The position numbers were made by a program, and so were the translations under genes. A model generated the notes under the pieces. The model did no database searches. It saw only the letters and a list, made by a program, of their open reading frames with translations, and was not told the DNA's origin. Of a DNA stretch of 39,904 nucleotides, positions 1,519 through 31,813 are shown in pieces; within the stretch, counting starts at the first letter, position 1; each line of letters opens with the position of its first letter. The stretch comes from Candidatus Elulimicrobium sp. (lineage in GTDB: Bacteria; Patescibacteriota; Minisyncoccia; Moranbacterales; UBA9337). The stretch covers positions 1 to 39,904 of the forward strand of contig DYKS01000003.1 in the NCBI GenBank assembly GCA_020722485.1, given 5' to 3'.

Positions 1519-1680
1519 ATTGCCTTTTGCGCTATCCTATATTAAACTTATTGTGTAATAACTTTAATAACTCACTGCTTACAATTTTCATATTTTGGTC
1601 AAATTTTGTAAAAATTTTTATTGACTTACTTAAAAACAAACCGCGAAAATATTGTTAATTTTTTTAAATTCTTTAATTTT

Positions 1681-3207
1681 ATGCCTTCTAAAATTCTTTC
1701 GGCGGCAATCGTTGGACTGGATAGTGAAACAGTAGAAGTAGAAGTAGATGTTCTGAGTCAAGGACTACATAATTTTACTATTGTCGGTTTGCCAGATACA
1801 TCCATCAAAGAATCTCGCGATCGTGTTTCCAGCGCGCTTAAAAATAGCGGTTTTAAGCCTCCACATCAATGCGGACGAATAACAGTTAACTTAGCGCCCG
1901 CCAATCTTCCTAAAAACAGCCCGCTGTATGATTTACCGATCGCGCTGGGATTTCTCTTGGCTACTGGACAAATAGATTTTGATTATCGCGATAAATTATT
2001 CGCCGGAGAATTAGCTTTGGATGGAAAAATTCGTCCCGTTCAAGGTATTTTACCGATCGCGTTAATGGCCCAAGAGAAAAAAATAAAAGAAATTTTCGTT
2101 CCCCGCGCCAACGCGCTCGAAGCCAGTGTAATAAATAAAGTCGATGTTATTCCGGTGGATAATTTGTTTTCTCTGGCACAACATCTAAAAGGAGAAAATA
2201 TTATTCCTTTTTATTTTAAAACCGATCCGAAAAAATTCTTTCAAAAAACCGATTATTTGATAGATATGTCGCATATTAAAGGGCAAGAGCATGCTAAGCG
2301 CGCGCTGGAAATAGCCGCGGCTGGGGGACATAACATCATTCTCAATGGTTCACCGGGATCAGGAAAAACACTTTTAGCCAAAGCAATGCCGTCTATTTTA
2401 CCGCGTCTGACTTTACCAGAAGCATTGGAAATTACTAAAATTTTTTCAGTTTCCGGTAAATTATCCAAAGAAACACCTCTTATAACCACTCGTCCTTTTC
2501 GTTCTCCTCATCACAGCGCTAGCACGGTTTCTTTGATAGGCGGAGGAACTTATCCTAAACCGGGAGAAATCAGCTTGTCTCACAGGGGCGTATTGTTTCT
2601 AGATGAGTTCGCGGAATTCCCCAAAAATATACTGGAAAGTCTGCGTCAGCCACTAGAAGACGGGGTTATTACTGTTTCTCGCGCTAAAGGCACGACAGAA
2701 TTCCCGGCCAGATTCACTTTAGTCGCCGCTATGAATCCTTGTCCTTGCGGAAATGCTAATGATCCTGAAAAATTATGTTCCTGCACACCAGCGCAAATTA
2801 TAAGATATCAAAGGAAAATTTCCGGACCCATTCTAGATCGGATTGATTTACAGATTAATGTAACGCGACTTAAATTTGAAAAACTTCAAGAAGACAGCAC
2901 AAGTGAAACCAGTGATATTATCCGTCAAAGGGTAGAACGGGCTCGAAAAATCCAAGAAAAAAGATTTAAAAATCTAGACGGAATTATTACTAATAGTGAA
3001 ATGAATTCCAATCAAATAAAAAATTTTTGTCCACTAGATAAAGATTGTATAGCACTTTTACGCAATGCTGTTTCTTCTATGAATTTAAGCGCGCGCGCTT
3101 ATTATCGGCTCATCAAAATCGCTCGCACTATTGCCGATTTAGATCAAATGGAAAAAATAACTCCATCTCATATTGCCGAAGCAATTCAATACCGCTTCAA
3201 AGAATAA
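1681..3207 (+). CDS. comM: YifB/ComM-family Mg-chelatase-like AAA+ ATPase
   Basis: Lon-protease-like N-domain (VEVDV..GLP.F.IVGLPD..VKESR.RV), Walker A GSPGSGKT, Walker B LFLDEF, C-terminal ChlI-like helix bundle. I chose ATG 1681 (MPSKILSA...) because the track start TTG 1621 lies inside a TTGACT promoter-like box. Confidence 0.85.
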   Translation: MPSKILSAAIVGLDSETVEVEVDVLSQGLHNFTIVGLPDTSIKESRDRVSSALKNSGFKPPHQCGRITVNLAPANLPKNSPLYDLPIALGFLLATGQIDFDYRDKLFAGELALDGKIRPVQGILPIALMAQEKKIKEIFVPRANALEASVINKVDVIPVDNLFSLAQHLKGENIIPFYFKTDPKKFFQKTDYLIDMSHIKGQEHAKRALEIAAAGGHNIILNGSPGSGKTLLAKAMPSILPRLTLPEALEITKIFSVSGKLSKETPLITTRPFRSPHHSASTVSLIGGGTYPKPGEISLSHRGVLFLDEFAEFPKNILESLRQPLEDGVITVSRAKGTTEFPARFTLVAAMNPCPCGNANDPEKLCSCTPAQIIRYQRKISGPILDRIDLQINVTRLKFEKLQEDSTSETSDIIRQRVERARKIQEKRFKNLDGIITNSEMNSNQIKNFCPLDKDCIALLRNAVSSMNLSARAYYRLIKIARTIADLDQMEKITPSHIAEAIQYRFKE

Positions 3208-3213
3208 TAAATT

Positions 3214-4167
3214 ATGTTTTCTTTGTTCCAAAAAATTTTTAGTGCGGTTTTTCTACTTTTTATCGCTTTTTTATTTATTTCTGCGCTAGGAGTAAAGACC
3301 CAACACTCTTTCAGTGATACGGAAATAACAGAAAAGAAAATTTTTTTGGCAGACAATAATTTTTTATTTTCCACTATCACAAAAGAAAATTCAGTAGAAG
3401 AATTTTTGAAAAGTCAAAAATTAGTTCTAGGAGAAAATGATGAGGTATTCCCGTCCCCGGAAACAAAAATTTATTCCGGTTCTCATATAATCATTAAACG
3501 CGCCGTAAAAGTAATTGTTTTAGCAGACGGAGAAGAAAAAATTTTTTATACTCACAAGAAAAATGTTGCCGAAGCTTTAAATGAACAAAATTTGAATTTA
3601 AAAAACGAAGATATAGTTATTCCTTCTAGAGAATCCGGAATATACTCGGAAATGAAAATCAAAATTACCCGTGTAGAAATTAAATCCGAAACAATCGTCA
3701 AATCCATTGCGTATAAAACAATAACCCAAGAAGATAAGGAGTTGGGTTGGAGAGAGAAAAAAACAAAACAAAAAGGAAAAAATGGATCTAAAGAAATTGA
3801 ATACAAAGTAGTTTATCATAATAATAAGGAAATTTCGCGCGAAATTAAAGGAGAAAAAATATTGAAAGAACCAATAGATGAAATTATCGTTCAGGGAACT
3901 TATGTAAAACTAGGAAAATCACACACTGGACAAGCGTCTTGGTATAATTATACTGGTACAATGTCTGCCGCCAATCCATGGCTTCCTTTGGGTAGTTTCG
4001 TCAAAGTAACCAACCGCGCTAACGGAAAATCGGTGATTGTCCGCATCAATGATCGCGGACCTTTTGGCAAAGGAAGAATTATTGATCTGGATAAAGTCGC
4101 TTTTCAAAAGTTGGCTTCTTTGGGAGCCGGAGTGATAGATGTGAAAATGGAAGAGATATTGAACTAA
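3214..4167 (+). CDS. Membrane-anchored cell-wall protein: DUF348-like region, G5 domain, C-terminal RlpA-like double-psi beta-barrel (YabE/RpfB-type layout)
   Basis: N-terminal TM helix. G5-like block (..KSIAYKTITQEDKELGWREKKTKQKGKNGSKEIEYKVVY..). C-terminus ASWYNYTG..SAANPWLPLGSFVKVTN..NGKSVIVRINDRGPFGKGRIIDL matches the RlpA/DPBB signature. Confidence 0.75.
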   Translation: MFSLFQKIFSAVFLLFIAFLFISALGVKTQHSFSDTEITEKKIFLADNNFLFSTITKENSVEEFLKSQKLVLGENDEVFPSPETKIYSGSHIIIKRAVKVIVLADGEEKIFYTHKKNVAEALNEQNLNLKNEDIVIPSRESGIYSEMKIKITRVEIKSETIVKSIAYKTITQEDKELGWREKKTKQKGKNGSKEIEYKVVYHNNKEISREIKGEKILKEPIDEIIVQGTYVKLGKSHTGQASWYNYTGTMSAANPWLPLGSFVKVTNRANGKSVIVRINDRGPFGKGRIIDLDKVAFQKLASLGAGVIDVKMEEILN

Positions 4168-4182
4168 TTGCTTTTATCTTAA

Positions 4183-4214
4183 AAAATTGTAAACAACACG
4201 GTGGAATCTAACAT
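4183..4214 (+). repeat. Conserved ~31-nt box (AAAATTGTAAACAACACGGTGGAATCTAACAT), solo copy without the palindrome module
   Basis: Aligns position-for-position with 451-481, 37108-37139 and 39314-39345 (TGTAAA, 15 nt, TAACAT). It ends 3 nt before the rsmA ATG. Confidence 0.65.
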
Positions 4215-4217
4215 ATT

Positions 4218-5057
4218 ATGGAAATAAAACCTAAAAAATCTCTTGGCCAGAATTTTTTGACGGATAGAAATGTCGTTAAGAAAATAATAGAGGCAGCAGA
4301 CTTAAAAAAAGACGATGTAATTTTGGAAATCGGTCCGGGAAAAGGAATTTTAACCGAAGCGTTGGCTGAACGCTCCGAAAAAGTCATCGCTGTAGAAATT
4401 GACGGGGATTTGGTTAAATTTCTCCGAAAAAAATTTAAAAATCAAAAAAAAGTTGCGATAATTCACGGAGATATACTGGAAATTTCCAATTTTCAATCCA
4501 TCGGCTGGCAGACAAATTTCAAACAGCTTTCAATTCTTAATGATATTATTTTCAATAAAAGAAAATACAAGCTGATAGCGAATATTCCTTATTACATCAC
4601 CTCCAAGATAATTCGCTTGTTTTTGGAAGCAGAAAACATTCCCTCGCCATCCGAAATGATTTTAATGACACAGAAAGAAGTAGCGGAAAGAATAGCGGCG
4701 CCGCCGGGAAAAATGAGTCTGCTTTCCGTTTCTGTCCAATATTACGCCAAACCGGAAATATTATTTAATGTTTCCAAAAAATCTTTCGATCCAGCTCCGG
4801 ATGTAGACAGCAGTGTAATTAAGATAATTGCGCGAGATACGGAGCAAACAACAAAAGAAAAAAACGAGAAATTTTTCAGAATCGCGCGCGCGGGGTTTTG
4901 CGCTCGCAGAAAAACTCTTTCCAATAATCTTACCAACAGTTTTCACTGGGATAAAAAAGAAACGGAGAAAAAATTAAAAGCGGCCGGAATTAATCCAACT
5001 ACTCGCGCGCAAGAACTTTCAATAAAAGACTGGAAAAAATTAGCAAAATTTATATAA
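4218..5057 (+). CDS. rsmA: 16S rRNA (adenine1518/1519-N6)-dimethyltransferase
   Basis: N-terminal KKSLGQNFL motif and SAM-binding EIGPGKGILT, both typical of KsgA/RsmA. Confidence 0.9.
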   Translation: MEIKPKKSLGQNFLTDRNVVKKIIEAADLKKDDVILEIGPGKGILTEALAERSEKVIAVEIDGDLVKFLRKKFKNQKKVAIIHGDILEISNFQSIGWQTNFKQLSILNDIIFNKRKYKLIANIPYYITSKIIRLFLEAENIPSPSEMILMTQKEVAERIAAPPGKMSLLSVSVQYYAKPEILFNVSKKSFDPAPDVDSSVIKIIARDTEQTTKEKNEKFFRIARAGFCARRKTLSNNLTNSFHWDKKETEKKLKAAGINPTTRAQELSIKDWKKLAKFI

Positions 5058-5529
5058 AAATATTTTCTATATGTTTAATCCAGCACTGGCGAGAGGAAAA
5101 AAGAGCGGTTTTTACTTTAAAACGTTCCGCAAGAAAATTTTCCGGTGAAAAAGCGGAATTAGCAACGGAATCGTAAATATCGGGAAACCAAACAGAAACG
5201 GCGTCAAAACGATAAGGAATATCTAGAAGATGATTGTTTTTAAGATAAACTTGAGCGATTTTTTGCAGTTTATGGAGTTTGAAACGGTTGATGTTTTCTT
5301 CTGGAAGCAAATCGTCGTTGTTTTTCAAAAGGCGGGCTTTTACTTCTACAAAAACTATTTGGCCGGGCGCAGCTTTTTCTTGAACAATAATATCAATTTC
5401 TCCCACTCTTTTGCCGCGATCGTTTTTGAAATTGAAATCAATGATTCGGTAACCTTTGCGCTTTAAATAAGCGGCGGCGGCTCTTTCTCCCAGTTGCCCG
5501 AGTGTTAGTTGTTTTCCCTTTCTAAACAT
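5050..5529 (-). CDS. YraN-family (UPF0102) endonuclease-like protein with C-terminal extension
   Basis: GERAAAAYLKRKGYRII..N......GEIDIIV......VFVEVKAR matches the YraN signature. Its 3' end overlaps the rsmA 3' end by 8 nt (convergent). Confidence 0.75.
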   Translation of the reverse strand: MFRKGKQLTLGQLGERAAAAYLKRKGYRIIDFNFKNDRGKRVGEIDIIVQEKAAPGQIVFVEVKARLLKNNDDLLPEENINRFKLHKLQKIAQVYLKNNHLLDIPYRFDAVSVWFPDIYDSVANSAFSPENFLAERFKVKTALFSSRQCWIKHIENIFI

Positions 5530-5755
5530 ATTGAGGTTAAGTCTGATTACATAAAATATCTTTCACCCAGAGTGCTTTAATTTGCCACTAGATACAATAA
5601 AATTACAATTAAAACAGATAACTTTCTTACCAATAATTTTAATTTACCATATTGGCGCGGAATTTCAAACTTAACCCAAATAAATAAGGGTGGCAATGAT
5701 AAAAATTACTGAAAAAATATCCCTGAAAATTAACTCATTTCTAGCCAGTCAATAC

Positions 5756-5783
5756 AAAAACCACCTCTCAAGAGGTGGTTTTT
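5756..5783. terminator. Bidirectional intrinsic terminator: A5, CCACCTCT, CA, AGAGGTGG, T5
   Basis: 8-bp GC-rich stem (5761-5768 / 5771-5778) with a 2-nt loop, flanked by an A-run and a T-run. Confidence 0.65.
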
Positions 5784-5814
5784 GATCAAAATGAATGTCG
5801 AAAAACAATAATGT

Positions 5815-6026
5815 TTTGTTGCCCGGCATCCGTTTTGATTTTGGAAACCGGGCGCCTTAAACGCCCTAAAATATAATTACTAAAAGGCGATGACGCCCGG
5901 TGTTTTATCATGTACTAACACGCGAACCGGAAACTTAATAGCCCGGGTGAAGAGGCATCTTAAGTTATATATAAGCCGCATGTATTTTACGTACATATAA
6001 CATTTATTCTGGCTTAATAAATGTTT
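5815..6026 (-). ncRNA. Candidate structured RNA (family unknown), probably read on the minus strand into the 5756-5783 terminator
   Basis: GC-rich block in an AT-rich spacer with several local helices: GCCCGG 5821-5826 / CCGGGC 5848-5853; GGCG-ATGA-CGCC 5886-5897; 10-bp AACATTTATT 5999-6008 / AATAAATGTT 6016-6025. No ORF. Strand and ends are uncertain. Confidence 0.3.
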
Positions 6027-6130
6027 CTTCTGCCATTCTCTGGTGATTTTACACCTTTTTAATTCAAAGAACTTTATTATTATTTTTCTTTTTATTTTTG
6101 TTTTAAAAAAAATTTTTTATTTTTATTTTA

Positions 6131-6240
6131 GGTCCCCTGCCAGAGCGGGGCGGTTTCGGCACGTTCTCCGAAACACTTGAACAGCAGAAGAATTTCCAAT
6201 CACAAATAGGGGGAAATTGTGAATGGAAATTCTTCCGCCA
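6131..6240. ncRNA. Candidate ~110-nt structured RNA (family unknown) with a three-way-junction-like fold
   Basis: 19-bp helix with one mismatch (6187-6205 / 6217-6235) and loop ATAGGGGGAAA. 7-bp hairpin GTTTCGG 6153-6159 / CCGAAAC 6168-6174. Possible closing GGCG 6049-side pairing: GGCG 6149-6152 / CGCC 6236-6239. GC-rich and flanked by almost pure A/T. Confidence 0.3.
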
Positions 6241-6437
6241 TTTCTTTAATTTATTTAAACTTTTCAAGATTACTAAATACATTATACCAAAAAAATAACT
6301 CTAAGTCAAAACATACTTTTCTTTTTCCTTTTATTAAAAGGATATCCTTTGAAAAAAATAACTTTTTAAAATTATCTTTTTGATTTCAAAAAAATATTTA
6401 ATTTAAAAAGTAATTTACTTTTTCTAAAATTAGCAAG

Positions 6438-6467
6438 TTATCCACATTTTATTCTAATTTATCCACA
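6438..6467 (+). promoter_or_regulatory. Two direct perfect DnaA boxes: TTATCCACA at 6438-6446 and 6459-6467
   Basis: Read directly; located in the 3' flank of the minus-strand gene 6591-7916. Confidence 0.5.
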
Positions 6468-6590
6468 AATTTTATTCTAACATTTCAATTTTTCCTTAGC
6501 TTTTATAATTTTTTTCTGTTATATGTTTGTTTTCATTAATAATTTTAATTCACATCTGCTTCTGAAAAATTTTCTGTTGTTTCTAGGATT

Positions 6591-7916
6591 TCATTTTCTT
6601 GATTTAACATAGTCCAAAATTATACAAGCAGTTTCTCTGCTGGTTCCCAGAATAAAATATTCTCCTTCTAAAAAATAATCCACAGAAAAATTATTTTCTC
6701 TATCCACGTTTAAATATCGAGAATTGCCTCCTTTATCGCATATTCCGCTTTTCATTGGAGAAACTGATGAAGAAAAATCTTTTCCTAAAAATAATGGTTG
6801 AACTTTTGCGGCAATACCAATTTCATCTTTGACTATTTCTTGAGAAAACGATTGAATATCTTCTACTATCACAGCTATTCCCATCCGAACCCCATAATCA
6901 TTATTGACAAAATAAAGTGAAAAATCCTCCCCAAAAGTTTTCAATGTTTCCGGAGAAAGGGTCAAGTTAAAAATCTGAGAAAAAATCGGAAAAGCGATTG
7001 GATTAATATCATAATCTACCACTTCAAATTCAAAAATTTTTCCTTTTTCTTCATACGATTGGATTTCCTCGCTAATTTTTTTACAATCTTCCAAAATACT
7101 TTGCGCGGTAGCGTCTTCAGTATTCACTTTTAAATAATTTATCCTTTGAGAAGAATATTTGCCCTCTGTTTCTATTGGAACAACAATTTTCTCTTCTGTA
7201 AATTCTTTTGGTTTATCAGCGCCTTTGTTAAAAATCCCTCTTTTCCAGAAAAAATATCCTCCTGCCAATAAAAAAGAAATAACTAAAATAACAGATGAAA
7301 TCAATAAAAATTTTTTCTTTGAATGAGCCGGTTTGCTTTCTGATGAAATTTCCAAAGAAGGATTATGTTTATCAGGAATGTTTTTCGCGGAAAAGAATTT
7401 ATTGAAATCATCAGACGGAATTTCAGCTTTTTTTTCATTTAAAGAAAATTTATTCTCTTCTTTGGGCGAAAAAGAACTTGCCAAAGATGATTTTCTTTTG
7501 GAAATAACTTCGGAAGGAAAAGGGCGATGAAAAGAAGAATTGGGAGCGGATTTCTTTGATTCGGAAAAAGCTGAAGTATTAAAATTCTTATTTTTATTTA
7601 AACCAGAAAAAATTTCCTTGACTGACTTATTTTCCGGTAGAGAAGAAACGGTATGAGAAACATTATGAGAAACCGAGGCAGGGGAGGATTCTTTTTCAGA
7701 AATAGAAATTTCCTTCGATTCTTTTTTATCTTCTTCTGTAAAATCAGACAAATCTTTTTTTATATTTAGAATTTCTTTTGAGCTTCTATCCAAATCGTCT
7801 TTCATCGTATGAAAAACCGCTTGAATAGGTTGCTCCGATTCGGAAGAATATTTTTCGGAATTATTTTTATTTGTCGTCAAATTAGAAAAAAAGGGAGAAT
7901 TTGTTTTATTGCTCAT
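6591..7916 (-). CDS. Hypothetical single-pass membrane protein: S/K/E/N-rich disordered N-terminus, one TM helix, ~215-aa C-terminal globular domain
   Basis: Long uninterrupted ORF. TM segment FLLISSVILVISFLLAGGYFFW. No family signature recognised. Confidence 0.6.
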   Translation of the reverse strand: MSNKTNSPFFSNLTTNKNNSEKYSSESEQPIQAVFHTMKDDLDRSSKEILNIKKDLSDFTEEDKKESKEISISEKESSPASVSHNVSHTVSSLPENKSVKEIFSGLNKNKNFNTSAFSESKKSAPNSSFHRPFPSEVISKRKSSLASSFSPKEENKFSLNEKKAEIPSDDFNKFFSAKNIPDKHNPSLEISSESKPAHSKKKFLLISSVILVISFLLAGGYFFWKRGIFNKGADKPKEFTEEKIVVPIETEGKYSSQRINYLKVNTEDATAQSILEDCKKISEEIQSYEEKGKIFEFEVVDYDINPIAFPIFSQIFNLTLSPETLKTFGEDFSLYFVNNDYGVRMGIAVIVEDIQSFSQEIVKDEIGIAAKVQPLFLGKDFSSSVSPMKSGICDKGGNSRYLNVDRENNFSVDYFLEGEYFILGTSRETACIILDYVKSRK

Positions 7917-8098: not shown

Positions 8099-10228
8099 CT
8101 ATTTCTGCTCTTTTAACGCTTCTTTCATAGAAAGATTAATTCTTCCTAAATTATCAATGTTTTTCACTTTAACCAAAACAACATCTCCTACTTTAACCAC
8201 TTCATCTACCTTCGCCACGCGATGATCAGCTAGTTCAGAAATATGAATCAATCCTTCTTGTCCGGGCAAAACTTCCGCGAAGGCTCCAAAGTCCATAATA
8301 CGAGTCACACGAGCGTTAAAAAATTCTCCTGTTTTGATTTCGTGAGTTAAATTTTCAATCCACTTTTGAGCTTTTTGCGCGCTTATTTCATCCGAGGAAG
8401 TAATAAAAACTATTCCATCGTCTTCAATATCAATAGACACTCCTGTTTCATCAATAATTTCATTGATTACTTTTCCTCCCGGTCCAATCACATCCCGAAT
8501 TTTATCCGGATTAATTCGCATAGTAATAACGCGTGGCGCGTATTGGGATAGATTTTCTCGCGGAACAGCGATAACTGCCAACATTTTTTCCATTATTTCC
8601 AAACGATTGCGGCGCGCTTGTAATAAAGTTTTTTCCAGAATTTCCAAAGGAATACCTTCCACTTTGACATCCATTTGTAAAGCGGTAATACCATTTTTTG
8701 TGCCGGCAACTTTGAAATCCATATCTCCGTAATGATCTTCCATTCCTTGAATATCAGAAAGAATTTTATAATGAGAAAAATCTCCTTTTTTCGCTTTATC
8801 CTGATCAATAATCACTCCCATAGCAATACCACTCACTGGTTCTTTGATGGGCACTCCGGCATCCATCAAAGATAAAGTAGATCCACAAACTGAAGCCATA
8901 GAAGAAGATCCGTTGGAAGAAAGAATTTCGGACACTAAAAGAATTGTGTAAGGAAACTCTTCTTTAGATGGAATTACCGGTATTAACGCTTTTTCCGCCA
9001 AAGCGCCATGCCCAATTTCTCTTCTGCCCGGTCCGCGCATTGGACGCGTTTCTCCCACTGAAAAAGGCGGAAAATTGTAATGATGAATATATCTTTTCTT
9101 GGTGTCGGTTTCCATTGTGTCAATTATTTGCTCAGCGCCAGGTGCTCCTAAAGTGGTAATTGTTAAGGCTTGCGTTTCTCCGCGGGTAAATAATCCCGTT
9201 CCGTGTGTGCGAGGGATAATGCCCACTTGACAATCAATGTTTCGCACTTCGTCCAATTTTCTGCCGTCTGGACGCGCTTGCTTTTCCAAGATATTACGGT
9301 GAATCGTCTCATCAGAAATCTCATCAAAAATTATTTCCGATACCTCTCTCATTTTTTCCGCTTCCGCTGAATATTTTTCAGAAATTAAATCGTTTACTTT
9401 ATTTTTCAATTCATCTATTTTTTCGTAAACTTCTTTCTTTTTTCCTAAATAAAGAATATCGACTAAACCATTGTTAAGAAAAAACTCTCGAATTTCTTTT
9501 TCAAATTCTGGCGTTCCTTCCATTAAAATCGGTTTAGCTTTTTCTTGTCCGATTTCTTGGCGAATATTTTCAATAAAATCCACGATTTTTCCGATGGCTT
9601 CTTGGGCAAACGATAAAGCCTGAATCACTTGTTCTTCTGGAATCTCAACCATTCCCGCTTCTATCATATTGATTTTATCTTTCGTTCCTGCCACAACTAA
9701 ATCAAAATTTTCCGCTTTGATATCTTCTTTTACTGGATTGAGAATCCAATCTCCATTCACTTTTCCTACTCGCACAGCTCCAATTGGACCATTCCATGGA
9801 ATATCAGAAATCGCCAACGCTACCGATGCGGCAATAATAGAAATAAAATCCGGATCGTTTTCCTGGTCAATAGAAAGAACGGTAATAATTACCTGCACTT
9901 CATTTCTCATTCGGTGATTAAACAAGGGACGGATGGAACGATCAACCGCGCGTCCGGAAAGAATGGCTTCATCCGATGGACGTCCTTCTCTTTTTATGAA
10001 ACGGGACCCTTTGATTTTTCCAGCGGCATAATATCGCTCTTCAAAATCCACCATCAAAGGAAAATAACCTTTGACAGACGCTGCTTTAGAACTCATTACA
10101 GCTGTTGCCAAAACCACAGTATCTCCATATTTAACAACTGCGGCGCTATTAGCTTGTCCAGCTAAAAAATTAGTCTCCACGGACAGTTCTCGCCCTCCGA
10201 TTTGAAGGGACCATTTTTGTTTCTTCAT
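8099..10228 (-). CDS. pnp: Polyribonucleotide nucleotidyltransferase (PNPase)
   Basis: Two RNase PH-like domains, then KH (..INPDKIRDVIGPGGKVINEI..) and S1 (..GEFFNARVTRIMDFGAFAEV..GQEGLIHISEL..) domains. Start set at ATG 10228 (MKKQKWSLQIGGREL...). The track start GTG 10267 falls inside an upstream hairpin. Confidence 0.9.
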   Translation of the reverse strand: MKKQKWSLQIGGRELSVETNFLAGQANSAAVVKYGDTVVLATAVMSSKAASVKGYFPLMVDFEERYYAAGKIKGSRFIKREGRPSDEAILSGRAVDRSIRPLFNHRMRNEVQVIITVLSIDQENDPDFISIIAASVALAISDIPWNGPIGAVRVGKVNGDWILNPVKEDIKAENFDLVVAGTKDKINMIEAGMVEIPEEQVIQALSFAQEAIGKIVDFIENIRQEIGQEKAKPILMEGTPEFEKEIREFFLNNGLVDILYLGKKKEVYEKIDELKNKVNDLISEKYSAEAEKMREVSEIIFDEISDETIHRNILEKQARPDGRKLDEVRNIDCQVGIIPRTHGTGLFTRGETQALTITTLGAPGAEQIIDTMETDTKKRYIHHYNFPPFSVGETRPMRGPGRREIGHGALAEKALIPVIPSKEEFPYTILLVSEILSSNGSSSMASVCGSTLSLMDAGVPIKEPVSGIAMGVIIDQDKAKKGDFSHYKILSDIQGMEDHYGDMDFKVAGTKNGITALQMDVKVEGIPLEILEKTLLQARRNRLEIMEKMLAVIAVPRENLSQYAPRVITMRINPDKIRDVIGPGGKVINEIIDETGVSIDIEDDGIVFITSSDEISAQKAQKWIENLTHEIKTGEFFNARVTRIMDFGAFAEVLPGQEGLIHISELADHRVAKVDEVVKVGDVVLVKVKNIDNLGRINLSMKEALKEQK

Positions 10229-10266
10229 AGTTAAGTTGATCGCCAAGCCAGCTAAACCAATAAACA

Positions 10267-10309
10267 CACTATTTACTTTAAAAAAACTGACTTTTTAAAG
10301 TAAACAGTG
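10267..10309 (-). promoter_or_regulatory. 18-bp leader hairpin (17 of 18 paired) upstream of pnp
   Basis: CACTATTTACTTTAAAAA 10267-10284 pairs with TTTTTAAAGTAAACAGTG 10292-10309, 7-nt loop, one A/C mismatch. It lies 39 nt upstream of ATG 10228. Confidence 0.45.
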
Positions 10310-10577: not shown

Positions 10578-10586
10578 TTATCCACA
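10578..10586 (+). promoter_or_regulatory. Perfect DnaA box TTATCCACA directly abutting the start codon at 10587
   Basis: Read directly. Confidence 0.4.
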
Positions 10587-11794: not shown

Positions 11795-14700
11795 ATGAAC
11801 ACTCAATCAAATCCAACAGATTTCCGCGATCCTTTGAATAAAAAAGAAATTATTCAAAAAACTTTGACAAAATTCAGCAAAGAAACCGAAGAAGAACAAG
11901 CTTCTTTACTGGCCAAAAAACACCAACTGCCTTATTTAGATCTTAATTTATTTTTTATCCAAGCCAACGAAGTCAAATTATTAGCGGAGAAAGAAGCGTT
12001 AAAATATCACGCCGCCATTTTTCAAAAAATTGGCAAAGAAATTCGCGTCGCCATTACCCAGCCACAAAGCAAAGAAACATTTGATTTTTTTAACGCTTTT
12101 GCTCAAAAAAATGGGTGGCAAGCGAGATTTTTTGTGGTTTCTAATTCTTCTCTATCAAAAGTATTGAAAAAATATTCTTCCGAAGACTTGTTAGATAATT
12201 TAAATCTGATCAAAGTTTCTCTTCATAAAGAAAACTTGGAAAAATTTGAAAAAGATTTTAAAAATCTTTTAGATCTCAAAAACCGTATTTTGGAAATTCC
12301 CATCACTCAAGTAATTGACACTATTTTGGCCGGCGCGATAAAAATGAATGCCAGCGACATCCATTTGGAACCAGAAGAAAAAGAATTGCGTATTCGCTAT
12401 CGTTTAGACGGAATTCTTCATTCTATCGGCGCTTTCCCTTTAAAAGCGCACCGCTCCTTAATCACTCGTATAAAAATAATGGGAGGAATGAAAATTAACA
12501 TTCACGAAACCGCGCAAGATGGAAGTTTTTCTTTTGATTTAGAACAACATAAAATTGACGCTCGAGTCAGTATTATTCCCGGAAATTTCGGGGAAAGCGC
12601 GGTTATTCGTTTACTGGATCAGTCGCAAACACTTTTACAAATAGAAGAATTAGGATTGCGAGGATTGGCTTATGAAGAAATAAAAAGACAAATTAACCGC
12701 CCTAATGGAATGATTTTAACAACGGGACCGACCGGATCGGGTAAAACCACTAGTCTTTATGCTTTTATTAATAGAATAAATACACCCAATGTCAAAATTA
12801 TTACCATTGAAGATCCGATTGAATACCAAATTAAAGGTATTTCGCAAACGCAAGTTTCCCCAGAAAACGGTTATACTTTCGCCAATGGACTGCGAGCTAT
12901 TGTTCGCCAAGATCCGGATGTCATTCTGATTAGTGAAATCCGCGATGATGAAACAGCTGATATCGCCATCAATTCCGCCCTTACTGGTCATTTGGTTTTA
13001 AGCACGCTTCACACCAAAGGAGCCAGCGCTTCTATTTCCCGTTTGCTTGAATTAAGGATAAGACCATCTTTAATTTCTTCATCGCTGAATACTATTATTT
13101 CCCAAAGATTAGTGCGTCGCCTTTGTCTTCATTGCAGAGAAGAATATGTCCCCGCGCCAGAAACAGTAGATTGGATCAAAAAAATTATTTCTTTAATTTC
13201 TCCAAAGTCTAAAGTAGAAATTCCTAAAAAAATAGAGAAACTCTACCGAGCCAAAGGTTGCGCTTATTGTAATGGAACGGGATACAAAGGACGCATCGGA
13301 ATTTTTGAAGTGCTTAGCATCAATGAAAAAATCAGCGATTTAATCCGAAATATGGAAAGCGAGAAAAAAATCAGCGAAGCGGCAATAGAAGAAGGAATGA
13401 TAACTATGGTTCAAGACGGAATTTTAAAAGCAATAGAAGGCAATACTTCTATTGAAGAAATATGGCGCGTAACGGATCAGGCTGATTTTTTAGAAAAAAT
13501 TTATGAAAAATTAATGGAGCAATCTCTGGCGCGCTCAATTCAAATTAAAGAAAAGGACTTAAAAACAGTTTCCGAACATATAATTTCTTTTGAAAAATTA
13601 AAAACTTTTTTGGAAAATCTTAAAACAGAAGATTTACTACGTTATGTTTTAGCCGGAGCGCTTTTGATTAATGCTAGTGATATTCATTTAGAACCAACCG
13701 AGAAAAATGTTTTGATCAGAATGCGTTTAGATGGCGTTTTACAAAATATAGCTTCTTTTCCACTAACTGAATATCCTTCTCTTTTAGGAAATATTAAAAC
13801 CCTAAGTGGATTATTGTATGAACAACAAGCCGGTATTCAAGACAGCCGTTTTTCCGTTGATTTAGAGAAACCCTTTGGAAAACTTACGATGCTAAAAAAC
13901 GACATTCGTGTTTCTATTATTTTAGGCGGCTATGGAGAAACAGCTGTATTGCGAATCCTTAATCAAAATTTTTCTAAAATAGGGATTGAATCTTTAGGAA
14001 TTCGTCAAGAAAATTTAAAAAAAATTAAAAAAGAAATCCATAAACCTTATGGTTTATTTCTAAACACCGGACCTACTGGATCAGGAAAAACCACTACTCT
14101 TTATGAAATTTTAAAAATTCTTAACAAACCAGAAATTAAAATCATTACCATTGAAGATCCAATTGAATATCGTTTAGATGGAATTATTCAAACCCAAATA
14201 AATGAAGAAAACGGATATACTTTTTCTAGCGCTCTTCGCTCTATTTTGCGCCAAAATCCCAATGTTATAATGTTAGGAGAAATCCGAGACGAAGAAACCG
14301 CTCAAATGGCAATCCAGGCAGCCCTTACTGGTCATTTGGTTTTAAGCACGCTTCACACTAATGACGCCGCTGGAGCAATTTCTAGATTTATTAATTTAGG
14401 CGTCCGTTCCGATGATTTAACAACATCTGTTGGCAGTTTTATGGCGCAAAGATTAGTGAGAAAATTATGCGACTGCAAAATTAAAACTGAACTTTCGGTG
14501 TCAGAAAAAGAAAAAATTAAAAAAGCGCTTTCCACTATTTCTCCTCAAGCAAAAATAAAAATTCCTCAAATTAAATACGCTTATCGCCCTAATGGCTGTC
14601 CCAAATGCAACGGGATTGGCTACAAAGGACGCGTGGCTATCAGTGAGATTTTAACAGTTAATGATAAAATAAAGGAAATGATTAATAATGGAGATCCCGT

Positions 14701-14821
14701 TTATAAAATCAAGAAACAGGCCCAAGAAGATGGAATGATTACTATGTTTCAAGATGGAGTTTTGAAAGTTCTAGAAGGAGAAACCACTTTAGAAGAAGTG
14801 GAAAAAGTAACCGGAGAATAA
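11795..14821 (+). CDS. Tandem-duplicated GspE/PilB-type secretion/pilus-assembly ATPase: T2SSE_N-like N-domain plus two complete ATPase modules
   Basis: Module 1: GPTGSGKTTS, IITIEDPIEYQI, DPDVILISEIRD, TGHLVLSTLHT, CLHC...CAYCNGTGYKGR. Module 2: GPTGSGKTTT, IITIEDPIEYRL, NPNVIMLGEIRD, TGHLVLSTLHT, CDC...CPKCNGIGYKGR. One uninterrupted 1008-codon ORF. Confidence 0.85.
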   Translation: MNTQSNPTDFRDPLNKKEIIQKTLTKFSKETEEEQASLLAKKHQLPYLDLNLFFIQANEVKLLAEKEALKYHAAIFQKIGKEIRVAITQPQSKETFDFFNAFAQKNGWQARFFVVSNSSLSKVLKKYSSEDLLDNLNLIKVSLHKENLEKFEKDFKNLLDLKNRILEIPITQVIDTILAGAIKMNASDIHLEPEEKELRIRYRLDGILHSIGAFPLKAHRSLITRIKIMGGMKINIHETAQDGSFSFDLEQHKIDARVSIIPGNFGESAVIRLLDQSQTLLQIEELGLRGLAYEEIKRQINRPNGMILTTGPTGSGKTTSLYAFINRINTPNVKIITIEDPIEYQIKGISQTQVSPENGYTFANGLRAIVRQDPDVILISEIRDDETADIAINSALTGHLVLSTLHTKGASASISRLLELRIRPSLISSSLNTIISQRLVRRLCLHCREEYVPAPETVDWIKKIISLISPKSKVEIPKKIEKLYRAKGCAYCNGTGYKGRIGIFEVLSINEKISDLIRNMESEKKISEAAIEEGMITMVQDGILKAIEGNTSIEEIWRVTDQADFLEKIYEKLMEQSLARSIQIKEKDLKTVSEHIISFEKLKTFLENLKTEDLLRYVLAGALLINASDIHLEPTEKNVLIRMRLDGVLQNIASFPLTEYPSLLGNIKTLSGLLYEQQAGIQDSRFSVDLEKPFGKLTMLKNDIRVSIILGGYGETAVLRILNQNFSKIGIESLGIRQENLKKIKKEIHKPYGLFLNTGPTGSGKTTTLYEILKILNKPEIKIITIEDPIEYRLDGIIQTQINEENGYTFSSALRSILRQNPNVIMLGEIRDEETAQMAIQAALTGHLVLSTLHTNDAAGAISRFINLGVRSDDLTTSVGSFMAQRLVRKLCDCKIKTELSVSEKEKIKKALSTISPQAKIKIPQIKYAYRPNGCPKCNGIGYKGRVAISEILTVNDKIKEMINNGDPVYKIKKQAQEDGMITMFQDGVLKVLEGETTLEEVEKVTGE

Positions 14822-16377: not shown

Positions 16378-17022
16378 ATGTTTAATCCGCTTAAAAACAA
16401 AAGAGAAAACGAACACGTGATTTTGATAGTGCGCCGTCATTGGTTTGATATCCTTAAACAATTTTTTACAATCATTCTAGCGCTTTTTCTCTGGGCGGGA
16501 AGTTTTTTCCTTTTTTCTTTTTTGATTCAAAATTCCTTCCTCTCAGAAAATTTACATTATTTGATTTTACTTTTCCAAAGCAGTTTCGTTCTTTTGATTT
16601 GGCTTTATTCTTTCCTTGTTTGGATAGATTATTATTTTGATGTTTGGATTATCACTACTGAAAAAATTATCAACATTGAGCAAAAAAGCTTGTTTCTCCG
16701 TCACACCAGTGAATTGCAAATTTTAAAAATTCAAGATGTTTCCACGGAAGTTAAAGGACTTATTCCCAGTATTTTAAATTACGGCGAGGTGCATATTCAA
16801 TCAGCTGGCGCGGTTAATCGCTTTCTTTTTCATAATGTTCCCGACCCTTACGCCATCAAGAAAATAATTATGGATTTACAAAAAAACCAGCATCAAGAAA
16901 ATTTCACTTCAATAAAAAAAACTTTTGATAATTATAAATCTTATCCAACAGAAAAACTGCTTTTCCAAAAAACCTCTCCTTCTGATTCCACCTCTCCTTT
17001 TCACAACAAACCCGCTAATTAA
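16378..17022 (+). CDS. YdbS/YdbT-like membrane protein with bacterial PH (bPH_2) domain
   Basis: ..VILIVRRHWFDILKQF.. followed by two TM helices and a ..DVW.IT..KII.....LF.R....L.I.KIQDV.. block typical of bPH_2 proteins. Confidence 0.55.
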   Translation: MFNPLKNKRENEHVILIVRRHWFDILKQFFTIILALFLWAGSFFLFSFLIQNSFLSENLHYLILLFQSSFVLLIWLYSFLVWIDYYFDVWIITTEKIINIEQKSLFLRHTSELQILKIQDVSTEVKGLIPSILNYGEVHIQSAGAVNRFLFHNVPDPYAIKKIIMDLQKNQHQENFTSIKKTFDNYKSYPTEKLLFQKTSPSDSTSPFHNKPAN

Positions 17023-17112
17023 TAATTCTCTGTCAAATGCGGCGTTTGGCGGCAATTCAAGAGCTGCTTTGTTAATGCATAAGAAACACTGCATAATTTA
17101 GAATTTTCTGTT

Positions 17113-17184
17113 CTAATATAGATAAGCTTTAATGGTCTTACGATTAAAACTGCGAATCTTGAGTTTGCGTTTAAGGTTATGCAT
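17113..17184 (-). pseudogene. Possible remnant of a tyrosine recombinase N-terminus (23 codons, then a stop)
   Basis: Minus-strand reading gives MHNLKRKLKIRSFNRKTIKAYLY*, which resembles the SAM-like N-terminal motif (..LR.YS.KTIKAYL..) of integrase/Xer-family proteins. The match is very short, so the call is weak. Confidence 0.25.
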
Positions 17185-17661
17185 TGGGTCACGTTTAATT
17201 CTCGTTGTTTGAAATTGCGTGTTCATAGAGTATTAAGTATAAGGTGTCTTTTTTGCTCTTGGAATCGCAAAAAAAGCGAATGTATAAGTTCACTAAATAT
17301 TGCGCTCTATGAGAAAATAGGGCGATGTCATTTTTTTATCATATTCATTGCAAATATACGGGTATTAAAGGTATAAAGTTCAATAGAACGCTATAAGACG
17401 AATTCATTGATTTCCATAAATCCGATCTGCTTAATCCGGATATTTTTAACCGCAAAATCATTGATTATCTGATCTGGTATAATACCAAATGAACGCATTA
17501 TGCTTTTGAAAATCTGCTATCTCCATTACAATTCATAATGTCGTTGCAAACTAATAACTTTAATTTGTCTCAAGAGCGCAATCAAGAGTGGACTCATACA
17601 AACCCTGTCATTGTTTATAAATTTTGTTAAAATATTACTAATAAGTAACTTTTTTAAAAAA

Positions 17662-28930: not shown

Positions 28931-29138
28931 TGTGGATAAATGGAAAAAACCTACTGCTTGACAAAAAATATGTATAAAAAAATGTTTATAACCTGCGTGA
29001 ATAATTATAGGATAAAAAAAGAATAAATTGTTAGTAAGAAATAAATTAAAATAAATTTTAGTTATCCACATAGTGGTTCAATATAGTATTCAACTGGTTA
29101 TCAACAGAAAATAGGGTATTATTAACAACTTATCCACA
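28931..29138. promoter_or_regulatory. oriC part, dnaA-dnaN spacer: DnaA boxes TGTGGATAA 28931-28939, TTATCCACA 29062-29070, TTATCAACA 29098-29106 (1 mismatch), TTATCCACA 29130-29138
   Basis: Read directly. The surrounding spacer is extremely AT-rich and could serve as an unwinding element. Confidence 0.7.
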
Positions 29139-29139
29139 G

Positions 29140-30534
29140 TTAAACATTTAATTTTTTATTTAATTGTTTAAATTCAGACTCAATTTCTTTTTTTTCATAG
29201 ATAGCGCTGCTTATTTTTTTGCAAGCATACATAACAGTTGTATGATCTCTTCCACCTAAAAAATCTCCAATTTCAGGAAAAGATAATTTTAAATGATAAC
29301 GAATTAAAAACATTGCCATTTGTCTACAAAAAGCCACTTTTTTCTTTCTATTTTTATTAAAAAGGTCTTTTTCTTGTATTTCATAAAAATCTGCTACGGT
29401 TTTAATTATTTTTTGGCGGGTTAAATTTAATGAATTGTTTTGCTGTAAAAGATCTAAAAGAATTTCTTTAATATCATTTAAACTTAATTCTCTTTGATTT
29501 AACTGGGAATAAGCGATTAATTTATTTAACGCGCCCTCTAATTCTCGTACGTTTTTATTAAAGTTTTCCGCTAGGAAACGCAAATGCTCTTTCTTTATAG
29601 AAAAATTTTTTTCTGTTGCTTTTTGTTTTAAAATAGCAACGCGCGTTTCCATGTCAGGATTACTTACATCCGCAATCATTCCCCCTTCAAAACGGGAACG
29701 GAGCCTTTCTTCTAATATACTTATTTCTTTAGGGGGACGATCGCTACTTAAAACTACTTGTTTGTTTATTTGATAAAGAGCGTTGAAAATATGAAAAAAT
29801 TCAGTTTGAGTTTTTTCCTTGCCAGAAATAAATTGAATATCATCTATGATTAATAAATCGGTTTTTTTATAATGTTCTTTAAATTTATCTATTGTCCCGT
29901 TTTTTATAGAGTCAATTAAATCAGTGGTAAATGCTTCTGATGAGATGTATTTTACTACTTTTTCCGGATTTTTACGCAAAACCTCATTTCCAATGGATTG
30001 GAGGAGATGAGTTTTTCCTAATCCTACGCCACCATAAATAAATAAAGGGTTGTAAACCATACCCGGTTTTTGAGAAACAGCATAACAAGCCGCTCTAGCT
30101 AATTCATTATTTTCTCCCACTATGAAATTTTCAAAAGTATAACGAGGATTAAGATTGTTTTTTGGGTTTAATAAAGTATTTCCGGAATAAGTGGCTTGAA
30201 AATGAACTGGCGCGGAGTTTGTTTTAAAATAAGAATTATTTTTTACGCCATCAATAGTTTTCGTCACAGAAGCAGATTTTTCCTTAATATTTCCATTTAT
30301 TACGCATTTTATTTCTTTAATATCGCTTTGAAAGTTACGCAAAGAATTAAGAATTATTTTATTAAATTTGTTTTCTAGCCATTCTTTAGCAAATCCATTG
30401 GGAACACCAATAACAACCGTTCCATTTTGATTGGAAATAATATGCGTGTCCTTAAACCAAGTGACAAATTGGGCGCTAGACAAAGAAAGTTCAGCTTCAG
30501 CTAAGACGGAATTCCAAAGAGATGTATTATCCAT
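29140..30534 (-). CDS. dnaA: Chromosomal replication initiator DnaA
   Basis: ..LNPRYTFENFIVGENN.LA.AA...V...PG..YNPLFIYGGVGLGKTHLL (Walker A), LLIIDDIQF (Walker B), C-terminal DNA-binding ..IGDFLGGRDHTTVMYACKKI... Start set at ATG 30534 (MDNTSLWNSV...). The longer track ORF would cover the DnaA box at 30564-30572. Confidence 0.95.
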   Translation of the reverse strand: MDNTSLWNSVLAEAELSLSSAQFVTWFKDTHIISNQNGTVVIGVPNGFAKEWLENKFNKIILNSLRNFQSDIKEIKCVINGNIKEKSASVTKTIDGVKNNSYFKTNSAPVHFQATYSGNTLLNPKNNLNPRYTFENFIVGENNELARAACYAVSQKPGMVYNPLFIYGGVGLGKTHLLQSIGNEVLRKNPEKVVKYISSEAFTTDLIDSIKNGTIDKFKEHYKKTDLLIIDDIQFISGKEKTQTEFFHIFNALYQINKQVVLSSDRPPKEISILEERLRSRFEGGMIADVSNPDMETRVAILKQKATEKNFSIKKEHLRFLAENFNKNVRELEGALNKLIAYSQLNQRELSLNDIKEILLDLLQQNNSLNLTRQKIIKTVADFYEIQEKDLFNKNRKKKVAFCRQMAMFLIRYHLKLSFPEIGDFLGGRDHTTVMYACKKISSAIYEKKEIESEFKQLNKKLNV

Positions 30535-30563
30535 AATAATTGATTTATTAAGACAATTTGATT

Positions 30564-30615
30564 GTGGATAAAGTATAGCACAAGATAAAAATAATACCAA
30601 AAAACCTGTGGATAA
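30564..30615. promoter_or_regulatory. oriC part, upstream of dnaA: DnaA boxes TGTGGATAA at 30564-30572 and 30607-30615
   Basis: Read directly. They are followed by about 240 nt of highly AT-rich spacer before the rpmH promoter. Confidence 0.65.
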
Positions 30616-30940: not shown

Positions 30941-31078
30941 ATGAAAAGAACATATCAACCCAAAAAAAATCGCAGAAAAAAGAGACACGGATTTTTAAAA
31001 AGAAGCAGTACCAGAGATGGAAAAAATGTTTTAACGCGCCGTCGTCGAAAAGGAAGAAAAAAACTAACAACTGTCTAG
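30941..31078 (+). CDS. rpmH: 50S ribosomal protein L34
   Basis: Not in the supplied track (45 aa). My translation is [45 protein letters not shown], the classic L34 sequence in the classic position divergent from dnaA. Confidence 0.9.
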
Positions 31079-31099
31079 AAAAAAGGGAAAAATAAAAAA

Positions 31100-31813
31100 A
31101 TGAGTTTTATTTTCAATTCTTTTGTTTATCAACCTTTGTATAATATTTTAATTTTTTTCTACAATATTTTGGGAAATGATTTTGGTGTTGCCATTATTGC
31201 TACTACATTGGTTTTGAAGGCGGTTTTTATTCCTCTTTCTAAAAAACAAATAGAGTCGCAGAAGAAACTGCAAGAATTACAGCCAGAATTGAAAAAAATT
31301 CAAGAAAAAAACAAAAACAATAAAGAAAAACAAACCAAAGAAACATTGGAGTTTTATAAAAAAAATAAAGTTAATCCTTTTTCTGGTTGTTTGCCATTGA
31401 TTTTTCAGTTGGTTTTTTTAATTGCTATTTATCGAATTATTATGAAAATTTCCGGATCAAATTTTCAAGTAGAAGCCGGATTATTATATCCGTTTATAAC
31501 CAACCCCGGTTCTATCAAGAGTTTCTTTTTAGGTTTTCTGGATATGGCTAAACCTAATTACTATCTTGCTTTTTTGGCGGCTATTGCTCAATATTGGCAA
31601 GCTCGTTCAATGATGATTGGTCAAAAAAACACATTAAACAAAACGGATAAAAAAGATTTTTCTCAAGCGATGAGTCAACAGATGATGTACTTGGGACCAG
31701 TTTTAACTTTCTTTTTCGGGATGCAATTTGCGGCGGGATTAGCGTTATATTGGTTGACATCCACTCTGTTTTCTGTTTTTCAACAAGAATATATTTTTAA
31801 AAAGAGTAAATAA
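31100..31813 (+). CDS. yidC: Membrane protein insertase YidC (short, Oxa1-like form)
   Basis: ..IPLSKKQIESQKKLQELQPE..., ..NPFSGCLPLIFQL.., ..GLALYW..S.LFSV.QQ... Confidence 0.9.
   Translation: MSFIFNSFVYQPLYNILIFFYNILGNDFGVAIIATTLVLKAVFIPLSKKQIESQKKLQELQPELKKIQEKNKNNKEKQTKETLEFYKKNKVNPFSGCLPLIFQLVFLIAIYRIIMKISGSNFQVEAGLLYPFITNPGSIKSFFLGFLDMAKPNYYLAFLAAIAQYWQARSMMIGQKNTLNKTDKKDFSQAMSQQMMYLGPVLTFFFGMQFAAGLALYWLTSTLFSVFQQEYIFKKSK

Follow-up and report, generated by a model that had tools for sequence, protein, structure and literature searches.

The stretch of DNA analysed here, referred to throughout as the window, comprises 39,904 nucleotides (nt) of contig DYKS01000003.1 from Candidatus Elulimicrobium sp., and it raises the question of what lies in a gap of 1061 nt, between positions 5530 and 6590, which an earlier note on the same DNA had described as an unusually large island without any open reading frame (ORF) of 60 amino acids (aa) or more. 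The description holds on both counts: the longest overlapping ORF has 59 aa (6103-6282, minus strand), and the gap is the largest in the window between ORFs of at least 100 aa. Our analyses indicate that positions 5751-6274 on the minus strand are very probably the gene for a structured non-coding RNA of about 520 nt, measured from predicted start to U-tract, that is conserved across Candidatus Moranbacteria. Uncatalogued structured RNA had been suspected in the earlier note, and the suspicion is supported by the absence of a match to known families, by conservation and by covariation. The two GC-richer blocks that it had put forward as possible separate RNAs are better understood as two domains of one minus-strand unit, which has a single promoter and a single terminator.

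The gap lies within the gene order ksgA (plus strand), yraN of the UPF0102 family (5050-5529, minus), gap, p441 for a hypothetical protein (6591-7916, minus) and pnp (8099-10267, minus); dnaN, dnaA, rpmH, yidC and jag are found at 27.7-32.3 kb. The best matches of the PNPase encoded by pnp (64-71% identity) all belong to metagenome-assembled genomes (MAGs) of Candidatus Moranbacteria or Moraniibacteriota, members of the Candidate Phyla Radiation (CPR) or Patescibacteria, and the contig of the window is also recorded from a Joint Genome Institute metagenome and from one 2014 biofilm metagenome DNA run. Against the AT-rich background of the window (GC content about 32%), both blocks stand out, with GC fractions of 0.37-0.47 over approximately 5800-5950 and 0.40-0.42 over approximately 6100-6250. 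What had been called a spacer of about 100 nt of A and T is indeed AT-rich (GC 0.23 between the blocks), but it belongs to the RNA, as an A-rich stretch that is conserved and in part structured, and is not a mere spacer; GC falls to 0.14-0.20 over 6300-6500. A 14-base-pair (bp) palindrome, AAAGGATATCCTTT, is present at 6337-6350, two nt from where it had been placed, and was not conserved when sought in relatives. The second-largest gap between ORFs of at least 100 aa has 588 nt (17022-17611) and sits upstream of a 663-aa protein with LTD and PKD domains, the TTG start of which is uncertain.

Conservation, promoter and folding of the probable RNA

Comparison of the minus strand of the gap with 80 Moranbacteria pnp loci, using nhmmer, produced approximately 60 matches with E values from 1e-59 to about 1e-18, which span 400-700 nt at 67-76% identity and without exception fall on the pnp strand, after a p441 homologue. 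Identity among the p441 proteins of these relatives is only 16-31%, so that the non-coding DNA is under greater constraint than the coding DNA beside it. A covariance model of domain 2 (R1), built from a seed of 24 sequences with a hand-derived structure, finds, in 96 of 99 loci, a single full-length match at the same position, scoring 34-228 bits (180 bits in the window itself), while its best match in 608 kb of control loci reaches 24 bits. Of about 185,000 species-representative genomes, 54 contain a 22-base pattern taken from helix H1, each of them a single time, and all 54 are Moranbacteria or Patescibacteria-type MAGs; no viral contig contained it. The homologous spacers of about 96 related genomes, which the earlier note had suggested inspecting for covariation, prove to be conserved, and the covariation is strong. 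The predicted features of the gene are as follows, in the direction of transcription:

6281-6309, minus strand: sigma-70 promoter, with a -35 box TTGACT (6309-6304), a 17-nt spacer and an extended -10 box TGgTATAAT (6289-6281)
6242-6274, minus strand: 5' leader, with the conserved motif UUGAAAAG (6267-6260), family consensus UURAMAAY
6241-6134, minus strand: domain 1, composed of helices H1, H2 and H3
6181-6241, minus strand: H1, a hairpin (about 25 bp) whose apical loop is UUUCCCCCUAU (6216-6206)
6153-6174, minus strand: H2, GUUUCG paired with CGAAAC
6134-6150, minus strand: H3, CCCC paired with GGGG
6114-6133, minus strand: A-rich single-stranded tract, consensus AAAAYAAAAAYAAAAA, with invariant or nearly invariant A columns
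6082-6113, minus strand: helix Hx, AUUUUUUUU paired with AAGAAAAAU, presenting the A-rich loop AAAACAAAAAUAAA (6104-6091)
5841-6073, minus strand: domain 2, composed of Pa, Ha, GGCAGAAG, Hb, Pb1-Pb3, Hc, ACA-rich junctions and Pc
within domain 2, minus strand: Pa, GUUCUUU paired with AGAGAAU, enclosing hairpin Ha
about 6024-5996, minus strand: Hb, an optional hairpin of domain 2
within domain 2, minus strand: Pb1, Pb2 and Pb3, stacked helices capped by hairpin Hc, the loop of which has UCACCCG (5950-5944)
5900-5894 with 5854-5848, minus strand: Pc, a helix of domain 2, CCGGGCG paired with CGCCCGG
5784-5840, minus strand: variable 3' hairpin region, a hairpin being predicted in the window and the sequence not being conserved in relatives
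5751-5783, minus strand: intrinsic terminator, CCACCUC-UUGA-GAGGUGG followed by UUUUUGUAUU

The promoter matches the consensus at 11 of 12 positions and has the TG of an extended -10 element in addition. Among relatives, TTGAC-N16-19-TAnAAT was present in 95 of 95 and the extended -10 TGn in 93 of 95, and no columns of the upstream alignment are more conserved than these motifs. We infer a transcription start near 6274; from the start of the RNA to the end of domain 2 the median distance in relatives is 455 nt. A pairing partner for the leader motif was sought by column-pair covariation and none was found.

Domain 1 was assessed on a plain MAFFT alignment of 61 sequences that was not fitted to any structure. 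On it, 95.1% of cells are paired and 25 of 28 pairs display compensatory double changes, giving a covariation score of 0.60, compared with 0.27 for shuffled alignments and no more than 0.16 for slid partners. Compensatory double changes affect 15 of the 18 pairs in H1 (97% of cells paired), all six in H2 and all four in H3, and the CCCCCT of the H1 loop is retained by 84 of 95 relatives. G·U pairs are frequent in these helices and, were the plus strand the RNA, would become A·C; this, with the orientation of promoter and terminator, fixes the minus strand, which folding energies also favour (z-scores over 5745-6275, against dinucleotide shuffles, of -8.4 for the minus and -6.1 for the plus strand). 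Two other readings of this region were rejected. Neither a 13-codon ORF from 6240 nor the 59-aa ORF at 6103-6282 has a conserved start codon, and an antisense action on dnaA, in which AGGGGGAA (29679-29686) complements the H1 loop, is best regarded as chance because the third-codon positions of dnaA vary freely in 18 relatives.

Between the domains, the A-rich motif is present in 92 of 95 relatives, some lineages carrying an inserted hairpin just 3' of it, and most relatives have a stem of at least 5 bp around an A-rich loop directly upstream of domain 2. Variants of this Hx stem are compensatory, for example AACUUUUUA/UAAAAAGUU, CAUUUUC/GAAAAUG and GCUUUUG/CAAAAGC. In domain 2, double changes occur at 32 of 39 pairs and 92.1% of cells are paired, a share that is inflated by the fitting of this alignment to the structure of the model; the covariation score is 0.449, compared with 0.186 when shuffled and at most 0.11 in slid controls. 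The Hc loop includes CACCC in 92 of 96 relatives. In the window this loop, CUCACCCG (5944-5953), is also the exact complement of CGGGUGAG, which we take to be a near-universal motif of 16S rRNA, around Escherichia coli positions 107-114; the chance of such an 8-mer match to rRNA is about 7% per loop.

It may be asked whether the domains belong to a single molecule, or whether they are separated by processing in the A-rich linker or by an internal start. A-rich single strands are typical endonuclease targets, one clade has domain 2 with a degenerate domain 1, and when inter-domain or end-to-end helices were sought by column-pair covariation only the known helices were recovered. Yet the domains are always collinear, on the same strand and 60-140 nt apart, the sole conserved promoter is upstream of domain 1, and the linker is itself conserved and includes a covarying helix; furthermore, H3 is followed by A's and not by U's, which leaves no terminator after domain 1. 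We consider two RNAs to be a distinctly improbable account, and one RNA with two domains is assumed below.

Known RNA families and the DNA upstream

No family of Rfam 15 (4227 families) matched either strand of the gap at gathering score or at E values up to 10, as the earlier note had recommended checking; with permissive filters the latter threshold yielded only noise such as miRNA and snoRNA models. At gathering score there was no match in the whole window, nor at this position in ten related loci. ARAGORN finds neither a transfer RNA nor a transfer-messenger RNA (tmRNA) in the window, in agreement with the failure of the earlier note to recognise either, and full-text searching of the literature found no description of this RNA.

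Individual candidates were rejected in turn. RNase P RNA (RF00010 and RF00011) has no Rfam match at E up to 10 and its P4 core motifs, GAGGAAAGUCC and ACAGAAnnCGGCUUA, are absent by inspection; tmRNA is matched by neither ARAGORN nor Rfam and a tRNA-like acceptor and T-arm are likewise absent by inspection; 6S RNA (RF00013) has no Rfam match and is a rod of about 180 nt with a central bubble, as opposed to two multi-helix domains; signal recognition particle (SRP) RNA (RF00169 and RF01854) has no Rfam match and the domain IV motif is absent by inspection. OLE RNA (RF01071) is not matched at E up to 10, and the neighbouring p441 lacks a Pfam match.

A highly divergent version of RNase P RNA, tmRNA, 6S or SRP RNA that current models miss would share the strong promoter, single copy and order-wide presence that we observe, and the absence of rnpA from its usual place between rpmH and yidC in the window also speaks for it. 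That permissive filters and E up to 10 still bring no match to any of the four, and that about 520 nt and two domains are unlike 6S or SRP RNA, make this very unlikely. Moreover, rnpA is found beside rpmH in other Moranbacteria, including contig LBQD01000002, which also carries the RNA (loci L138 and L037), so that a canonical RNase P is to be expected there; replacement of RNase P by the RNA was rejected because other Moranbacteria have rnpA. In the window itself (30941-31100), yidC begins 22 nt after rpmH with no rnpA between them, and the same is true of the closest relatives, L136 and L140; elsewhere in Moranbacteria the order is rpmH-rnpA-yidC, or rnpA lies on the opposite strand beside rpmH.

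A different possibility is that selection acts on the DNA itself, as a replication origin, a DnaA-titration site or a regulatory region, and it brings in the upstream part of the gap. The features there are:

6591-7916, minus strand: p441, a 441-aa hypothetical protein with a disordered Ser/Lys-rich N-terminal region and one transmembrane helix (approximately residues 203-225)
6438-6467, minus strand: two DnaA boxes, TGTGGATAA on the minus strand, each preceded by TTAGAATAAAAT
6405-6423, minus strand: probable terminator of p441, AAAAAGTAAATTACTTTTT, an AU-rich hairpin followed by a U run

Both DnaA boxes listed in the earlier note, TTATCCACA at 6438-6446 and 6459-6467, are perfect; they stand between the stop codon and the terminator of p441, about 130-160 nt upstream of the -35 box of the RNA, with an AT-rich stretch nearby. 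Of 68 relatives, about 45 have a perfect box in the same orientation at 165-200 nt upstream from the -10 box, and this conservation is what a DNA-level element would lead one to expect. Nonetheless, we judge such an element to be extremely unlikely as an explanation of the locus. Pairing, both Watson-Crick and G·U, is maintained by the compensatory changes for one strand only; the boxes fall outside the conserved core, on the upstream side of the conserved promoter; and denser clusters of boxes, at 28931-29138 and 30563-30615, flank dnaA and dnaN, compared with only two boxes at the RNA. It is these strand-specific pairing rules and the clusters beside dnaA that speak against an origin here; the clusters, about 23 kb from the RNA, probably represent oriC. 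In the window as a whole there are 25 matches to the DnaA box with at most one mismatch, compared with 9.3 +/- 3.0 in shuffles, and ten perfect boxes in 40 kb. Isolated boxes also occur in other spacers, at 135-168 and at 10578-10586, the latter abutting the start codon (10587) of a DHH-family gene, and DnaA may be a general transcription factor in this organism. The dnaA ORF as called mechanically (29140-30600, minus strand) opens with a TTG at 30600 and a hydrophobic extension; the ATG at 30534 marks the beginning of the conserved DnaA N-terminus (MDNTSLWN...), in which case the boxes at 30563-30615 would be upstream of dnaA.

The element that we regard as the probable terminator of p441 has counterparts in relatives: AAAAG...CTTTT occurs near -142 in 25 of 68, with compensatory stem variants such as AAAAGAAGTCATCGACTTCTTTT. 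Within p441, the N-terminal region has the conserved motifs IHTMxxDL and SPF and the C-terminal domain of about 215 aa has no known fold. Profile searches of Pfam and PDB with p441 matched only the transmembrane segment, protein searches returned only p441 itself, and Foldseek, using a poor single-sequence model (mean predicted local confidence, pLDDT, 54), found nothing at E below 0.5.

The terminator, transcription and the gene downstream

The strong bidirectional terminator reported in the earlier note lies exactly where it was said to lie: AAAAACCACCTCTCAAGAGGTGGTTTTT occupies 5756-5783, and a scan of the minus strand gives -12.9 kcal/mol, followed by TTTTGTAT. A simple scanner missed it, the likely reason being that the A and T runs on either side can pair and so lengthen the stem, and its symmetry means that it could also stop transcription on the plus strand. 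In 88 of 95 relatives domain 2 is followed by a hairpin and U-tract, the median distance being 80 nt. Beyond it are two further features:

5641-5668, minus strand: weak promoter-like site, TTGAAA-16-TAAATT with TG, a consensus match only, which could serve yraN
5050-5529, minus strand: yraN (UPF0102), a predicted PD-(D/E)xK nuclease (Pfam PF02021, E = 8e-22)

This arrangement supplies the main rival to a trans-acting RNA, namely that the conserved DNA is a long cis-acting 5' leader or attenuator, responsive to a ligand or protein, whose terminator controls read-through into yraN (and into comM in relatives). In 86 loci the downstream gene on this strand is yraN, whose start, in the 61 loci that could be scored, is a median of 28 nt past the terminator U-tract, leaving no room for a separate promoter; in most species, therefore, yraN probably depends on read-through, and the prevalence of the terminator after domain 2 is also as a leader would require. 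Against this, an extended -10 promoter close to consensus, seen in 95 of 95 genomes, would be unusual for the gene of a minor nuclease, the roughly 80 nt between core and terminator are not conserved and no conserved anti-terminator is visible, and no riboswitch or leader family was matched in Rfam. In the window, terminator and yraN are 226 nt apart, and the promoter-like site lies between them. Furthermore, one clade (loci L033, L040, L046, L055 and L065) keeps domain 2, at 175-182 bits, without yraN, the place of which is taken by a divergent, opposite-strand gene of about 530 aa. On balance a cis-acting leader seems to us rather unlikely. In several relatives (L002, L012, L016 and others) the RNA, yraN, comM, a G5/RlpA-like gene and ksgA follow one another on a single strand; in the window the comM-G5-ksgA block (1621-5057) is inverted with respect to this order, yraN stays beside the RNA, and the 3' ends of ksgA and yraN overlap by 8 nt (5050-5057).

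Evidence of transcription was sought in metatranscriptomes, where the earlier note had hoped for a discrete transcript ending at 5756-5783. Contigs homologous to domain 2 were indeed recovered from three libraries, of 151 nt (wastewater cDNA), 224 nt (wetland metatranscriptome) and 253 nt (ice metatranscriptome); they are short fragments from relatives. In all three libraries contigs cover the RNA only and leave the flanking genes uncovered. Two groundwater metatranscriptomes share 31-mers with domain 2 of locus L060, no contig being obtained from them, and no transcript evidence was found for locus L107. We regard the contigs as suggestive of expression.

Taking these lines together, the best explanation of the locus is, in our judgement, likely to be a stand-alone gene of about 520 nt with its own promoter and terminator, whose product is the RNA itself. 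A near-consensus promoter in every genome, a single copy and retention across the order would together imply that the RNA is the product and is both abundant and stable. Several observations weigh against this. The three metatranscriptome contigs come without strand or end information and could reflect DNA carry-over, and the window's own sequence was found in no RNA run, only in the single DNA run. The short distance between terminator and yraN is equally consistent with a cis-acting leader, and the pairing in domain 2 is flattered by its alignment. Conservation, too, has exceptions: the clade without yraN has another sequence in place of the C-rich H1 loop and has lost H2 and H3, and loci L032, L037 and L073 lack the CACCC of the Hc loop, so the conserved loops are not universal. 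At locus L049 (12364-14124) a p441-like gene is followed by the next gene after about 80 nt, with no RNA at E up to 1; the RNA may there lie elsewhere or have been lost, or the p441-like gene may be a paralogue. Lastly, no binding partner or target was identified.

A side observation concerns the far side of pnp, where a 1008-aa protein (11795-14821) has two tandem regions resembling the type II/IV secretion ATPases T2SSE and PilB, together with MshEN, an unusual duplicated fusion.

Possible function and comparison with other large RNAs

What a stand-alone RNA of this kind would do can be suggested from its conserved parts. The chances that it acts in trans, as the scaffold of a ribonucleoprotein or as a sponge, seem to us about even. 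Transcription would proceed from the extended -10 promoter (6309-6281) and end at the intrinsic terminator (5783-5751), and the resulting stable, abundant RNA would bind proteins, or other RNAs, through its conserved single-stranded C-rich loops (H1, UUUCCCCCUAU; Hc, CUCACCCG), its A-rich tracts and its conserved junctions; low-level read-through of the terminator would feed yraN. A Shine-Dalgarno-like sequence precedes none of the 31 ORFs in the window (25 nt upstream inspected), which points to Shine-Dalgarno-independent initiation in this organism, and their leaders are A- or AT-rich, for example aaaaacaaaaaaATG. It may be speculated that the A-rich tracts of the RNA imitate such translation start regions.

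A bolder proposal, about which we are doubtful, is that the RNA and the product of p441 constitute a lineage-specific, membrane-anchored ribonucleoprotein, an independently evolved counterpart of OLE RNA and OapA. In 92 of 93 loci the gene next to the RNA on its upstream side belongs to the p441 family, as recognised with a family hidden Markov model; these loci include 30 found through the RNA pattern alone and others in which insertions separate p441 from pnp, so the pair is kept even where linkage to pnp is broken. In such a complex the disordered N-terminus of p441, with its short conserved motifs, would be cytoplasmic and the C-terminal domain would lie outside. Ribosomes or RNA-binding proteins might then be offered C-rich loops and A-rich tracts that resemble start sites, in bacteria whose initiation would not be based on Shine-Dalgarno sequences. 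OLE RNA is likewise large (about 600 nt, against about 520 nt here), intricately structured, present in single copy and found in one bacterial lineage, and its gene adjoins oapA, the gene for its membrane partner, much as the Moranbacteria RNA stands directly beside a gene for a membrane protein. The differences are nevertheless substantial: there is no similarity in sequence or structure, the phylum is another, p441 has one transmembrane helix, a long disordered N-terminus and no Pfam family, and the Moranbacteria RNA is downstream of the membrane-protein gene, which has its own terminator.

Other comparisons are instructive in part. The 6S RNA gene, ssrS, is also a stand-alone RNA gene with a strong promoter and a small protein gene directly after it on the same strand; in E. 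coli it is co-transcribed with ygfA, and yraN similarly appears to depend on read-through. However, 6S RNA is about 180 nt long and folds into a single long helix with a central bubble, whereas the RNA described here has about 520 nt, two multi-helix domains and an A-rich linker. A-rich tracts of the (AAN)n type and C-rich apical loops, exposed as single strands, recall the protein sponges CrcZ/CrcY, in which A-rich motifs are repeated, and the small RNAs RsaE/RoxS with their C-rich loops. CrcZ and CrcY bind Hfq/Crc, and elements of this type bind Hfq or G-rich ribosome-binding sites. The Moranbacteria RNA is much larger and more structured and shows no sequence similarity to these, and small RNAs of the RsaE/RoxS type would have no Shine-Dalgarno sites to target before the 31 ORFs of the window. 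With the raiA motif, ROOL, GOLLD and HEARO/omega RNA it shares its size class and a structure rich in covariation. It differs from them in lacking any Rfam match, in its absence from viral contigs and in not being found beside IscB/TnpB-type genes; it is chromosomal, single-copy and syntenic.

We file the RNA as a new class of large bacterial RNA, judging from its sequence and from the want of an Rfam family or a published description that we could find. To our knowledge, bacterial RNAs of more than about 400 nt with folds supported by covariation are few, namely the ribosomal RNAs, RNase P RNA, tmRNA, group I and group II introns, OLE, GOLLD, ROOL and HEARO, and every such RNA that we know to be understood so far has brought unexpected biochemistry. 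Among the genomes examined, this one was seen in an uncultivated lineage of the CPR, apparently with a near-consensus promoter in each, and genomes there are tiny, so that each retained gene is likely to matter. Approximately 100 alignable sequences and two domains supported by covariation make it a concrete target for structural work. The RNA would also offer a handle on RNA biology specific to the CPR, and it is a candidate for addition to Rfam and to the pipelines by which MAGs are annotated.

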